From: Alphaproteobacteria bacterium
GTDB taxonomy: Bacteria; Pseudomonadota; Alphaproteobacteria; SP197
Direction of reading: 5' to 3'
Length of the DNA stretch: 64,000 bases
Assembly (NCBI GenBank): GCA_964291415.2
Contig: OZ219918.1
Coordinates: forward strand, 928,001 to 992,000
Under the pieces are notes generated by a model. The model made no database searches and was not told where the DNA came from. It saw only the letters and a list, made by a program, of their open reading frames with translations. The translations under genes were made by a program, and so were the position numbers. Shown here in pieces: positions 32,079 through 35,726 of this stretch. The first letter of the stretch is position 1, and every line of letters starts with the position of its first letter.

Positions 32079-33260
32079 TCAGGCCTTCTCCCGTCGCTCG
32101 AATCGCTCAAGCATGTCGCTCAGGGCGTCCAGGGGAACGACTTCTCCGTCTTTGCGTGACTGCCGGTCCGAGCCTCCGTAGATGACTGCCCTCGCGCCGA
32201 TTGGCGGCAGGGCTTTCGCCACCCGGTTGAGCGAATTGAACCAGTCGGAGGCGACCGTCGCGCCGGACTTGATCTCGATGGCCCCCATGCCGCTGCCGTT
32301 CTCAAGGAGCAGGTCGCATTCCAGACCGCTGCTGGCACGGAAGAAGGACAGGTTGGACCGGCGTCCGCGATTGAAGCGATGCTTGAGCACCTCCACCACC
32401 ACGGCATTCTCGAACAGCGGCCCACGAAGCGGATGGGTGCCGATCTGCCCTGCGTGGTCGATGCCGATGAGGTGGCTCGCCAACCCGACATCGTAGAAGT
32501 AGAGCTTCGGTGTCTTGACCAGTCTCTTGCGGATGTTGGCGTGAAATGGCGGGAGCCGGAACACGACATAGCTCGCTTCCAGGACCGTAAGCCAGTGGCT
32601 TGCCGTGGTGTGGGATACGCCGGCGTCCGCGCCAAGGGACGACAGGTTGGCCAATTGGCCTACGCGCCCGGCGCAAAGGCGGACAAACCGGCGGAAGTTA
32701 GCGAGATTGCGGATCTCGCCGATCCTGCGCACGTCGCGCTCGACATAGGTCTCGAAGTAGTCGCCAAGAGCCTGCCGGGGTTCGAGCTTCCGGTCGTGAA
32801 TCCGGGGATAGAAGCCGGAGTACAGGATGTCGTCGATGCGGTCGCTCGCACCCGTCTGCCGGCGTTCTGCGAGCGAGAACGGCAGCAGGCGAAGCAATGC
32901 CGTGCGCCCGGCAAGCGACTGGCTTATGGCGTTGGTGAGCCGGAAGTGCTCGCTTCCGGTCAGAACGAAGAGGCTGTTCCGTCCCGCCTCGTCTGCCAGA
33001 ACCTGAAGGTAGGACAGGAGATCGGGGGCACGCTGGATTTCGTCCAGGATGGCCCCTTCGCCAAGGCGGGCGAGAAAGCCCCGGGGATCGGATTCTGCAA
33101 ACTCCCGCTGATCGGGCGCTTCCAGATTGACATAGTCAAGATGCGGGAAGGCCGCGCGGCAGAGCGTGGTCTTGCCCGACTGTCGGGGCCCGGTCACGGT
33201 GACGAATGGGTACTGTTCGAACAATCCGACCAGGCAAGGTGTGATTTCGCGCTCGATCAT
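32079..33260 (-). CDS. AAA_14 ATPase with DUF4143 domain
   Basis: GPRQSGKTT, LDEIQRAP, LTGS, TYVERD, KTPKLYFYDVGL, LFENAV, ECDLL...IEIKSG. Confidence 0.92.
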   Translation of the reverse strand: MIEREITPCLVGLFEQYPFVTVTGPRQSGKTTLCRAAFPHLDYVNLEAPDQREFAESDPRGFLARLGEGAILDEIQRAPDLLSYLQVLADEAGRNSLFVLTGSEHFRLTNAISQSLAGRTALLRLLPFSLAERRQTGASDRIDDILYSGFYPRIHDRKLEPRQALGDYFETYVERDVRRIGEIRNLANFRRFVRLCAGRVGQLANLSSLGADAGVSHTTASHWLTVLEASYVVFRLPPFHANIRKRLVKTPKLYFYDVGLASHLIGIDHAGQIGTHPLRGPLFENAVVVEVLKHRFNRGRRSNLSFFRASSGLECDLLLENGSGMGAIEIKSGATVASDWFNSLNRVAKALPPIGARAVIYGGSDRQSRKDGEVVPLDALSDMLERFERREKA

Positions 33261-33463
33261 GACGCATCGTGATTCATGATCAGTAATATTGCAAGTTCTA
33301 CTTGCAATTTGCACAACACTGGCGGTTTCTATGGCGCCTGCATTCATCAACCATGTCGATACGGTTCCGCCGGACCCGGTGCTCGTATTGGTGGCCCGGA
33401 GTTCGACAAGGGCACGGGGCTGCAACAATCCTCGCCCCAGGAAACCTTGCGGACGCCGTACTC

Positions 33464-33705
33464 GACGCCCGGAAGGACTGGAGCGAACATCCTCCATCAC
33501 TTTCACGCGCTGATCCACGACGCGATGGCAGGTTAGCAGCCGGACACACACTGGCTGCAGTTTGCGATTCTATCCTGCGGAGCGCAGGGTGCGTCGTTGG
33601 CGAGTGCCGATAGACCATGTCCAAGGTCGCGATCAAGGCAACATCGATGGGGTTCGCAAGCAGGCGAGCACCGATGATGGTCGGCTCACGTGGCAACGGC
33701 GCCGA
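33464..33705 (+). repeat. Direct-repeat copy of the Rieske gene 3' end and downstream DNA (partner about 30678-30925)
   Basis: GACGCCCGGAAGGACTGGAGCGA...CTCCATCACTTTCACGC.CTGATCCACGACGCGATGGCAGG.TAG near-identical for about 73 bp, then weaker similarity. Confidence 0.92.
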
Positions 33706-33934: not shown

Positions 33935-34370
33935 TCAGGCATTCTCCCGTCCCTCGAATCGTTCAAGCATCTTGCCCAGAGCGGCCAGGGGAACGACTTC
34001 ACCGTCTTTGAGTGACTGCCAGTCCGAACCTCCATAGATCACCGCCCTGGCGACGATCTGAGGCAGCGCCCTTGCTGTCCGGTGGAGCGAATCGAACCAG
34101 TCGGAAATCACTGTCGCGCCGGGCTTGATCTCGATGGCTCCCATGCCGCTGCCTTTCTCAAGGAGCAGGTCGCACTCCAGACCGCTGCTGGCACGGAAAA
34201 AGGACAGGTCGGACCGGCGGCCCCGATTGAAACGGTGCTTGAGCGCTTCCATCACCACGGCATTCTCGAACAGCGGCCCGCGTAGCGGGAGAGTGGCGAT
34301 CTGCCCGGCATGTTCGATGCCGATGAGGTGGCTCGCCAGCCCGACATCGTAGAAGTAGAGCTTGGATGAC
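33935..34370 (-). pseudogene. 5'-truncated paralogue of the AAA/DUF4143 gene; similarity extends downstream (33728-34363 vs 31880-32510)
   Basis: KLYFYDVGLASHLIGI...LFENAVV.E.LKHRFNRGRRS.LSFFRASSGLECDLLLE shared; N-terminal ATPase domain absent. Confidence 0.9.
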
Positions 34371-34781
34371 CTGATCAGCCGCTTGTGGGAAGTGTTGCGG
34401 GCTGGGCGGGAGCCGAAACCGTTCAAACTACGTGACGTCAGTGATTGCGGTCGGGGATTGCAGGCTGCGTGACGGCATGGCGGCTGGGAACGCATAGGTG
34501 ACGCCACCTTTGAAGCGCGGGGAAGTCGACCGCCGTCGTCACGGACATCCTTGCCCGTGCCCACCGGGCGAACTCGACGTAGTTTCGGCCAACCCGTATG
34601 GGCATCGAGGAGCCGGCCGAGGAGCGCGTGCGCCGGGACCTGCCCTGCCCTGCGTTCAGGAATTCATCGCCATTGTGGCACGCCCGCAGATCTATGGCCC
34701 GCCATGGTCAACAGTGGAAGGGCTTGGACAGGTGGATGCCAGGCCCGAATCTCCGACATTGGACCCTGGAAACTGACGTTA

Positions 34782-34875
34782 TTGACTGTTGGCGCTCAAG
34801 CACCTACAACTGGGCACCAATTGCGCCCCGCCGGACTCGCCGAAAGGCCCCGGCGGGGTTATTGATGCGCGAGTC
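34782..34875 (+). promoter_or_regulatory. Promoter and structured leader RNA of the NYN gene
   Basis: TTGACT-17 nt-TACAAC; stem CCCCGCCGG (34826-34834)/CCGGCGGGG (34850-34858), ACTC/C internal loop, GCC-GAAA-GGC apical hairpin. Confidence 0.65.
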
Positions 34876-35502
34876 ATGCCAGTCGAGCCAGAAAGTAAAC
34901 GTGCCGTTTCGTTCATCGACGGCCAAAATCTGTTCCGGCATGCCAAGGATGCCTTCGGTCACCATCATCCCAACTACGATCCGGCCAAACTCGCCGCGAC
35001 CGTCCGTGCTGCCAACGGTTGGATCGATGCTGGCGTCCGCTTCTACACCGGCGTTCCGGACGCAGACAGATCGCCGATGTGGCATGCCTACTGGACGCGG
35101 CGTCTTACCGTCATGCGCCGCGCCGGCATCGTCGTAACTTCCCGGCGGCTGCGTTACCGGATCGAGCAAATACGCCTTCCGGATGGCGCGACACACGATG
35201 TGCCGGTGCAGCGGGAGAAGGGGATCGATCTTCGACTGGGCCTCGATGTGGTCCGCATGGCGCGCAACGGCGACCTTGATGTGGCAGTGATCTTCAGCCA
35301 GGACCAGGACCTGGCCGAGGTGGCGCGCGAAGTCCGCGATATCTCGCGGACCCGAAATCTCTGGCTGAAGGTCGTCTCAGCCTATCCCTACGGATCAAGC
35401 GCGAGTTCCACCCGTGGGATTGATCGGACCGACTGGTTCCGGATGGACCGCGAATTCTACGATTCCTGCCTCGATCCGAGAGACTATCGACCTGGCCGCT
35501 GA
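34876..35502 (+). CDS. NYN-domain (LabA-like PIN fold) ribonuclease
   Basis: FIDGQNLF, VRFYTG, EKGIDLRLGLD, IFSQDQDL. Confidence 0.9.
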   Translation: MPVEPESKRAVSFIDGQNLFRHAKDAFGHHHPNYDPAKLAATVRAANGWIDAGVRFYTGVPDADRSPMWHAYWTRRLTVMRRAGIVVTSRRLRYRIEQIRLPDGATHDVPVQREKGIDLRLGLDVVRMARNGDLDVAVIFSQDQDLAEVAREVRDISRTRNLWLKVVSAYPYGSSASSTRGIDRTDWFRMDREFYDSCLDPRDYRPGR

Positions 35503-35726
35503 ACGAACGCATACGCTGCATGTAGCGCAAGCGTGTCGGGAAGGGCCATGCCGCGCGGGCCATGATGTCGGAACAACAGTGAGAGCGATTGATCGCCATC
35601 GCCATTGCAGTGGGAAAGGAGACATCTGCGAATGGTTCGATCGGAGTCCGGCCTGGAGCGCGTCGGATGAAAGTCGCGCGCGTTGTCGATGTCATGTCGG
35701 GAGCCGTGGCGACGTGGCCGGAGAGG

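Follow-up and report, generated by a model that had tools for sequence, protein, structure and literature searches.

A promoter-proximal RNA hairpin with covariation support accompanies mobile NYN nuclease genes in many bacterial phyla

We analysed a 64,000-nucleotide stretch of alphaproteobacterial DNA (positions 928,001 to 992,000 of contig OZ219918.1, assembly GCA_964291415.2; hereafter the window) with respect to a gene for an NYN-domain (LabA/DUF88-like) nuclease and the short structured leader that precedes it. The gene occupies positions 34876-35502 of the plus strand and codes for a protein of 208 aa, assigned by Pfam family PF01936, by its homologues and by a structure model. An earlier sequence-only reading of the locus had proposed that the leader RNA neutralises or autoregulates the nuclease. 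The promoter-like arrangement described there is present on the same strand, as are all leader features given below: the -35-like hexamer TTGACT (34782-34787) is followed, after a 17-nt spacer, by the -10-like hexamer TACAAC (34805-34810). The -10 words of relatives are mostly TATAAT-like, whereas that of the window lacks the final T, which is why a simple consensus promoter scan missed the window promoter. Judging from promoter spacing only, transcription would start at about 34817-34819. The unpaired 5′ flank AAUUGCG (AATTGCG in the DNA; 34819-34825), which corresponds to the conserved consensus A-M-U-U-G-S-U, leads directly into a hairpin at 34826-34858. In this hairpin, a 9-bp outer stem formed by the arms CCCCGCCGG (34826-34834) and CCGGCGGGG (34850-34858) is followed by an ACUC/C internal loop, made up of ACTC (34835-34838) and a bulged C (34849), and by a 3-bp inner stem of GCC (34839-34841) and GGC (34846-34848) capped by a GAAA loop (34842-34845). 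The tail TTATTGATG begins at 34859, and the segment from there to the start codon (34859-34875), which comprises UUAUUGAUG and a spacer, contains a degenerate U-tract and no Shine-Dalgarno sequence. The ATG at 34876 thereby lies 17 nt past the stem.

The fold drawn in the sequence-only reading, with a 9-bp GC stem, the ACUC/C loop and a GNRA-capped 3-bp hairpin, was reproduced exactly by folding the 49-nt leader of the window (-26.9 kcal/mol, z = -3.19), and none of 200 shuffled sequences folded as well. The further closure by GCGC/GCGC pairing that had been suggested does form in the minimum free energy fold of the window's own leader but is not conserved, the 3′ spacer being variable among relatives. 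The 33-nt hairpin is a single-copy sequence, with one occurrence in the window and one in the 4.44-Mb genome. A covariance model of the leader (R1) scored 68.3 bits at 34816-34870, which is its only strong match in this genome; a second match (22.5 bits, contig C4) falls within GC-rich, apparently coding sequence and was dismissed. A search of the window against the covariance models of Rfam 15, at E values up to 10, returned nothing at the leader. Four other loci (L015, L053, L216 and L142) had no Rfam 15 match at E values up to 1, and a fifth, L230, gave a sub-threshold match to the anti-hemB model alone (22 bits for a cut-off of 49.5).

Among contigs representing one genome per species, 280 stretches encode a relative of the NYN protein, the best 80 of which were kept. 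Their record titles place the carriers in Alpha- and Gammaproteobacteria, Dehalococcoidia, Thermoanaerobaculia, Vicinamibacterales, Binatia, Gaiellaceae, Spirochaetia and Entotheonella, and a scan with the apical pattern of the hairpin added Planctomycetota to the hosts. Loci L078 and L080 come from the named strains Blastochloris sulfoviridis DSM 729 and Aureimonas altamirensis A31. The same unit recurs upstream of the gene, namely a TTGAC-N17-TAnnnT promoter, the flank A-M-U-U-G-S-U, the hairpin and then UUAUUUUUU, and this leader is nearly constant among loci whose NYN proteins are 55-94% identical. In a MAFFT alignment of 65 distinct leaders, scored against the structure named beforehand, 99.6% of cells were paired, and at 6 of the 12 pairs both partners had changed (G-C to A-U or C-G, for instance, and C-G to U-A). 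Such pairing was reached by 0 of 500 shuffles, and alignments slid out of register were 34-60% paired. The distance between the outer arms ranges from 15 to 73 nt, the inner stem-loop varying in length while its pairing is kept with compensatory changes. The sequence-only reading was to be given up if homologues had no conserved structure upstream; the structure proved to be conserved, with these compensatory pairs, across many phyla. Model R1, whose seeds were 65 of the 84 NYN sources examined, matched 83 of these 84 sources, spanning more than 10 phyla, once each, on the coding strand and upstream of NYN. The 18 non-seed NYN loci all match except L009, which was missed because another element has inserted into its hairpin. 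In L032, the match lies about 450 nt upstream of NYN because an ORF of 125 aa (2563-2940), of unknown family and seen at this one Binatia locus only, intervenes between the leader hairpin and the NYN start. We also observed that in L058-L060 and L064-L066, all from Dehalococcoidia, purines face purines (GGA / GAA) in place of base pairs at three central positions of the outer stem, R1 scores still being 25-42 bits.

The remaining parts of the leader are conserved as well. Of 74 distinct leaders, 70 have a -35-like word TTGnn, placed 42-45 nt upstream of the stem. Position by position, the 5′ flank reads A in 73, U in 73 and U in 68 of the 74; since an A stands 7 nt in front of the stem in 73/74, we infer that transcription starts there. 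ACTC is commoner than ACTT in the internal loop, hairpin stability in relatives is -25 to -27 kcal/mol, and the UUAUU of the tail is at least 90% conserved. The absence of a strong U-tract, to which the sequence-only reading had drawn attention, is a property of the window copy (5 U in nine positions) and not of its relatives, 64 of 74 of which have at least 6 U in nine. The absence of an obvious Shine-Dalgarno sequence is, by contrast, general: none is present in the window and an SD-like word occurs in just 15/74 leaders. The stem is separated from the start codon by 7-29 nt in 72/74 leaders, with a mode of 17 and distances of 7-9 nt at some loci. Taken together, the counts for promoter, U-tract and Shine-Dalgarno words mean that, by sequence criteria, most copies look like a strong promoter with an immediate intrinsic terminator and a poorly initiating ORF. 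Past the NYN stop codon, no conserved 3′ element was found among the homologous loci.

The protein itself matches PF01936 over residues 13-157 (30.5 bits for a cut-off of 24.2, E = 6.1e-7), and its start codon is backed by 21 homologues in an alignment of 22 diverse members. An alignment-based AlphaFold model (pLDDT 90.3) retrieved 2qip (E = 6.4e-7), the MARF1 NYN domain (7e-4) and the ZC3H12C PIN domain as top folds in Foldseek. The window protein thus shares with LabA/DUF88-type NYN proteins (VPA0982, PDB 2qip; MARF1 NYN, 5yaa/6fdl) a common fold, an above-threshold PF01936 domain and conserved acidic residues, but differs from them by an extra conserved C-terminal segment of 50 aa (TDWFRMDR..CLDPRDYRP) and by the lack of a sequence match in the PDB, where a search at E values up to 1 matched no chain. 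In agreement with the earlier remark that the acidic catalytic residues are retained, D15, E114, D118, D124, D143, D145 and E148 are invariant in the 22 sequences; their active-site role is predicted, the residues not being mapped onto a solved active site. NCBIfam gave nothing meaningful for this protein and PHROGs nothing, whereas 4156 relatives were found in a large protein collection at E values up to 0.001. PADLOC returned only a weak match to HEC-09 (E = 1e-6). To our knowledge, bacterial NYN (LabA/DUF88) nucleases are widespread and almost unstudied.

A more distant NYN subfamily has a leader of its own. Of 301 genomes belonging to an actinobacterial class reached through locus L103, 10 contain distant NYN homologues only (at most 38% identity), and 8 of 11 such loci display a promoter followed by AYUUnCU, the hairpin CCCCGCC-GUCC-UNCG-GGAY-U-GGCGGGG and a U-tract. 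Scanning with one protein of this subfamily yielded 30 loci (Frankia, Microbacterium, Propionibacteriaceae, Actinomadura, Streptomyces and others). Every one of the 23 full-length loci inspected carries the promoter, AYUUnCU, CCCCGCC...GGCGGGG and a U-tract, usually with GGAGG thereafter. The proteins are about 30-35% identical to the window type; outer stem, 5′ flank and U-tract are common to both types of leader, and the apical module differs. Judged from these comparisons, the promoter-hairpin layout characterises the NYN family at large.

Promoter, leader and gene move together. Comparison with congeners delimits on the plus strand a cassette of about 950 bp (~34766-35715) that comprises the promoter, the leader, the NYN ORF and a 3′ tail of about 210 nt. 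Two congeners lacking NYN (L302 and L305) match the window up to ~34765 and again from ~35715, and carry between these points the intact 3′ half of a vapC/PIN-like gene; the cassette therefore replaced this half in the window genome. What is left in the window is a 5′ remnant of the gene (34378-34765, plus strand), truncated by the cassette and 76-78% identical to L302 and L305, in which the ORF is whole and runs to a stop codon. We take this ORF to be vapC/PIN-like from a C-terminal motif recognised by eye in L302 and L305. The left border of the cassette lies within about 20 nt of the -35 word, with the hairpin some 60 nt inside. Of 32 other genomes in the family, 7 contain NYN; all seven belong to the window's genus, and several copies are fragments or frameshifted. 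In a class-wide sample, R1 matched 3 of 151 genomes, one of which (L092) again has the motif before an NYN gene. Two weak R1 matches of 31.9 bits each were also seen 459 nt apart in a small genome of this sample (L093 and L094, G098:C30). Predicted viral contigs from IMG/VR contain 13 NYN loci, 11 with the motif. No conserved neighbour or partner gene was found across NYN loci: among 106 flanking ORFs at 57 loci, with integrases, transposases and a small number of phage proteins, each Pfam family is represented at most three times and each PADLOC family once, so that these ORFs reveal no defence-island enrichment. The description of NYN as a solo gene without an adjacent protein antitoxin thus holds beyond the window, and on these comparisons the NYN unit is a self-contained, horizontally mobile cassette.

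How strictly the hairpin is tied to NYN was assessed with a degenerate 19-nt pattern of its apical part, which occurs in at least 119 genome stretches and in 8 viral contigs. Among the 126 matches listed and sorted, 55 have NYN downstream, the gene appearing intact in 40, cut by a contig end in 5 and split or truncated in 10 despite DNA being available. Full hairpins without NYN account for 10 further matches on genome contigs and 8 on viral contigs, and one match is cut by a contig end. Another 23 represent a short form in Actinobacteria. The remaining 29 have no extended stem and are mostly chance-like matches within genes, L118, L170 and L192 resembling the short actinobacterial form.

We tentatively favour, with a probability of roughly 0.38, a reading in which the hairpin forms a leader RNA which attenuates transcription, thereby gating a potentially harmful NYN nuclease, and is itself recognised by that nuclease. 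A strong constitutive sigma-70-type promoter would give rise to a transcript starting about 7 nt before the GC hairpin, and the hairpin with its U-tract would act as an attenuator of the intrinsic-terminator type, most transcripts ending after about 50 nt. The NYN ORF, which begins at the foot of the hairpin and usually lacks a Shine-Dalgarno sequence, would be present in read-through molecules only, and such rare read-through would hold the potentially harmful nuclease at a low level. A second layer would consist of feedback, NYN binding or cutting its own leader. The unpaired letters (the 5′ A-M-U-U-G-S-U, ACUY/C, GNRA and UUAUU) are conserved beyond what termination needs, which suggests that a protein reads the RNA; likewise, these unpaired positions stay constant across hosts in which the synonymous sites of the gene have long been saturated, implying that the RNA has a reader. 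As NYN is the sole protein that always accompanies the hairpin, it would be the most likely one. Co-inheritance down to about 30% protein identity, apical modules specific to each subfamily and the lack of any other linked protein all argue for NYN in this role. This scheme presumes where transcription starts, that it terminates in vivo, and that NYN recognises the leader and is toxic.

Two known arrangements come close. Upstream of the E. coli nuclease genes rne, rnc and pnp, autoregulatory leaders likewise contain a stem-loop whose sequence is conserved beyond the fold, and their presumed logic is that of an enzyme acting on its own mRNA. The NYN hairpin differs in sitting at the extreme 5′ end, in being terminator-like and in preceding an accessory, horizontally moving gene instead of a housekeeping RNase; it has no sequence or model relation to these leaders and no Rfam 15 match, and its cleavage by NYN is a prediction. 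In the PR′-tR′ unit of phage lambda, a constitutive promoter is followed by an immediate terminator that gates the late genes. The NYN cassette resembles this unit in its strong promoter and immediate terminator, its short RNA and the dependence of the downstream gene on read-through; unlike it, the cassette has no linked Q-like antiterminator, its hairpin is far more conserved in sequence and it serves a single gene.

Several observations weigh against this reading. The tail of the window copy is itself a weak U-tract, and attenuation may therefore be leakier here than in most relatives. The CCCCGCC/GGCGGGG stems shared by the two NYN subfamilies could be convergent, a GC-rich stem being expected of any strong terminator. 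The 10 orphan hairpins on genome contigs have no NYN within 1.2 kb, although two of them (L152 and L155) retain NYN remnants. The 8 IMG/VR contigs and L116 carry the full hairpin with its conserved unpaired bases, without NYN and mostly without a U-tract. In L116 (993-1047), L214-L218 and L220, the hairpin and its 5′ flank, again lacking a U-tract, stand between two ORFs of unknown family, and the flank is kept in these mobile-element copies without a promoter in front. The element, examined in L216, codes for ParB, a DUF5906 primase, a DNA methylase and a helicase. The two flanking ORFs were considered as hidden NYN relatives and rejected (hhalign probability 0.1-0.2%). A profile search found an NYN homologue in none of 5 genomes bearing orphan or element hairpins, that of L116 included, the completeness of these genomes being unknown and an empty result of such a search carrying little weight. 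Since such genomes show no NYN homologue and the flanking ORFs are unrelated to it, a reader other than NYN must exist in those cases, and in some settings a factor of the host or of the element is suggested by the NYN-free copies. Elsewhere, in a Pseudomonadales metagenome-assembled genome (L100, 2582-3880), the same promoter and hairpin are followed 299 nt downstream not by NYN but by a gene for an AAA_21/ABC+DUF4435 ATPase. The orphan copies of L127, L176 and L201 are related to that of L100 and have no long ORF, or too little DNA, downstream; orphan L105 has an acyl-CoA dehydrogenase gene beside the hairpin.

These NYN-free copies speak for an alternative that we regard as possible but doubtful, in which the hairpin is an NYN-independent cis module (a terminator or insulator, a 5′ stabiliser or a processing site) read by RNA polymerase, Nus factors, an RNase or nothing at all, and travels with NYN merely because promoter, leader and gene move as a unit. 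A distribution across more than 10 phyla would favour a universal reader, the complete hairpin and 5′ flank are conserved in the mobile-element operon and in orphans, L100 places promoter and hairpin before another gene, and the features of an intrinsic terminator are there. Such a module does not account for the loop and bulge letters, which termination does not need, nor for an apical module that changes with the NYN subfamily. In the unbiased scan, moreover, 55 of the 72 full or near-full hairpins listed are linked to NYN, the layout persists at about 30% protein identity, and orphans such as L152 and L155 are visibly decayed NYN loci. Unlikely, in our estimate, is a toxin-antitoxin system of type III-like kind, close to what the sequence-only reading had in mind, in which abundant terminated hairpin RNA binds and neutralises NYN; a stop of transcription, caused for instance by a phage, would let the labile RNA decay and free the nuclease, and copies consisting of the hairpin alone would be genes for immunity or decoys. 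ToxIN-type loci have the same order of promoter, short RNA, terminator and endonuclease gene, as given in excerpts of PMC8860590 and PMC3401426. ToxIN, CptIN and TenpIN resemble the NYN cassette in this order of promoter, non-coding RNA, terminator and endoribonuclease gene, in being accessory and mobile, and in having RNA-only copies on mobile elements. The patchy, horizontal spread of NYN within one genus and into viral contigs, the insertion of the window cassette into a vapBC-like locus, and hairpin-only copies on mobile elements all fit such a system, as does the decay of NYN at 10 of the 55 linked loci listed and its absence from 10 more, the hairpin being intact. The antitoxins of those systems, however, consist of tandem repeats processed by a ToxN/AbiQ-like toxin. 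Such repeats, the defining feature of type III systems, are absent here: the only tandem repeat recorded by TRF is an unrelated CCTGC x3 at 34639-34653, and although a terminator-like hairpin stands between promoter and NYN in most relatives, this single hairpin is the whole RNA. In addition, NYN is not a toxin of the ToxN/AbiQ type, NYN loci show neither defence-island enrichment nor a PADLOC match beyond the weak HEC-09, and no NYN to neutralise was found in the 5 genomes with orphan or element hairpins. What survives of the RNA-antitoxin proposal is thus a conserved structured leader tied to a solo NYN gene in a type III-like layout; the missing tandem repeats and the NYN-free hairpins tell against the proposal as such. 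An antitoxin role of the leader may nonetheless be entertained, the decay of NYN beside intact hairpins fitting type III-like working.

Another alternative, which we consider improbable, relates the leader to the rifamycin-associated element (RAE) and makes it a sensor of RNA polymerase inhibition, with read-through, or a second promoter that overlaps the hairpin (TTGCCG - 17 nt - TATTTT), responding to rifamycins or other insults to the polymerase. According to excerpts of three reports (10.1101/2021.05.10.443488; PMC10719064; PMC12802891), the RAE is a palindrome of 19 bp that lies in the 5′ UTR, is required for rifamycin induction and is reported within Actinobacteria; in those of the last two, it is located some 20 bp past the start of promoter 1, where it overlaps the -35 of promoter 2, its mechanism being unknown. 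The layout of the NYN leader is comparable, both being GC-rich symmetric elements straight after a promoter's start site, and rifampicin-stimulated read-through of terminators is on record (Newman 1982, as cited in an excerpt of PMC6181997). The conserved A in UUAUUUU and the missing Shine-Dalgarno sequence would also fit a -10 word for a near-leaderless mRNA. The pattern GGACTYGCCGNAAGGCCCC, derived from NYN leaders, matches 23 actinobacterial loci among those listed, all of which read TAYAnC-(6-8 nt)-GGGGGACTTGCCGCAAGGCCCC. The genes after them code for HelR (1232.7 bits, cut-off 750), a rifampin monooxygenase (853.7 bits, cut-off 800) and partial N-terminal Rph and Rgt; these rifamycin-resistance genes identify the 23 matches as RAEs. 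Over 19 nt, a subset of RAEs agrees letter for letter with the apical part of many NYN leaders.

A survey of 29 HelR loci, with one unpublished genome left out, led us to reduce membership of the NYN leader among RAEs to a lead, as it revealed the general RAE to be a different, palindromic element. An RAE is present in 24 of the 29 loci as the palindrome GGGGnCTTGCsGCAAGnCCCC, mostly GGGGGCTTGCGGCAAGACCCC and mostly with a central G and A17. Covariation is sometimes seen between its positions 5 and 17, it is unable to form the inner GCC/GGC stem present in the NYN hairpin, and in isolation it folds the palindromic way, unlike the NYN hairpin. The window module GGACTCGCCGAAAGGCC is not palindromic, the inner arms of CCGGACTCGCCGAAAGGCCCCGG (CTCGC and GAAAG) not being complementary, and the gene downstream is NYN instead of helR, rox, rph, rgt or arr. 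Whereas the RAE precedes rifamycin-resistance genes, the NYN module is an asymmetric hairpin within a 9-bp outer stem with a U-tract, before a nuclease gene. The commoner loop sequence ACTC makes a poor -35, the ATG follows the stem by 7-9 nt at some loci, and actinobacterial NYN leaders lack the RAE core. With about 29 listed pattern matches having no extended stem, the partial overlap of GC-rich elements could be coincidence. A full-text literature search, judged by title, found nothing linking NYN and rifamycin. In L103, L107, L134, L142 and other actinobacterial loci, we noted a second conserved inverted repeat, GGCAAGGAG-N4-7-CTCCTTGCC, about 40 nt upstream of the RAE; it overlaps the -35 before the RAE and is common to helR, rox, rph and rgt loci.

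A role at the DNA level, as an operator palindrome or as a recombination site that moves the cassette, strikes us as highly improbable. The cassette is mobile with sharp borders, and another element has inserted in or beside the hairpin in L009 and L152. Yet the arms are spaced by 15-73 nt with pairing kept and inner stems compensated, which fits a single-stranded fold and not an operator of fixed spacing; the flanks are not complementary as in the R″/R′ sites of attC, and some 60 nt of cassette separate the hairpin from the left border. Readings as an attC-like or REP-like repeat were ruled out by the single genomic copy, the non-complementary flanks and the promoter within the unit.

The leader hairpin is an RNA element outside Rfam 15, supported by covariation and undescribed in the literature found: no account of an RNA motif preceding NYN genes turned up in the full-text literature, judged by abstracts and leaving the supplements of large motif surveys aside. 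It accompanies one large NYN family in many phyla and reaches predicted viral contigs. An RNA of 50 nt and a protein of 208 aa offer a handle on how a stand-alone nuclease stays harmless, as well as on single-hairpin RNAs as antitoxins and on the reuse of hairpins by mobile elements. The letter-level overlap with the RAE is a cheap lead on how that element works. It is a long shot that the NYN apical module is an RNA form of the RAE and that promoter-proximal hairpins constitute a cross-phylum sensor of RNA polymerase inhibition by rifamycins or phage shut-off; equally remote is the corollary that such a sensor would switch on resistance enzymes in Actinobacteria and nucleases (NYN, or the OLD-like ATPase of L100) elsewhere. 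If true, the RAE, whose mechanism is unknown in print, would gain an RNA-level or tandem-promoter mechanism open to testing in many hosts.

Some minor observations concern insertions and neighbouring genes. In L009 (~1240-1500) and L152 (1584-3340), an element with the terminal inverted repeats GCAAGCGTTCGG / CCGAACGCTTGC lies in or just past the hairpin; the one inserted in L152 carries an Mrr_cat endonuclease gene, beyond which the NYN fragment is found. In the window, the NYN cassette has as its neighbour, on the minus strand, a gene for a predicted AAA_14/DUF4143 ATPase (32079-33551), which is a PADLOC candidate (PDC-S01, E = 4e-95). A truncated second copy of the AAA_14/DUF4143 gene (33935-34564, minus strand) lies 1856 nt away; over at least 300 nt, the two copies form a direct repeat and are 84% identical.

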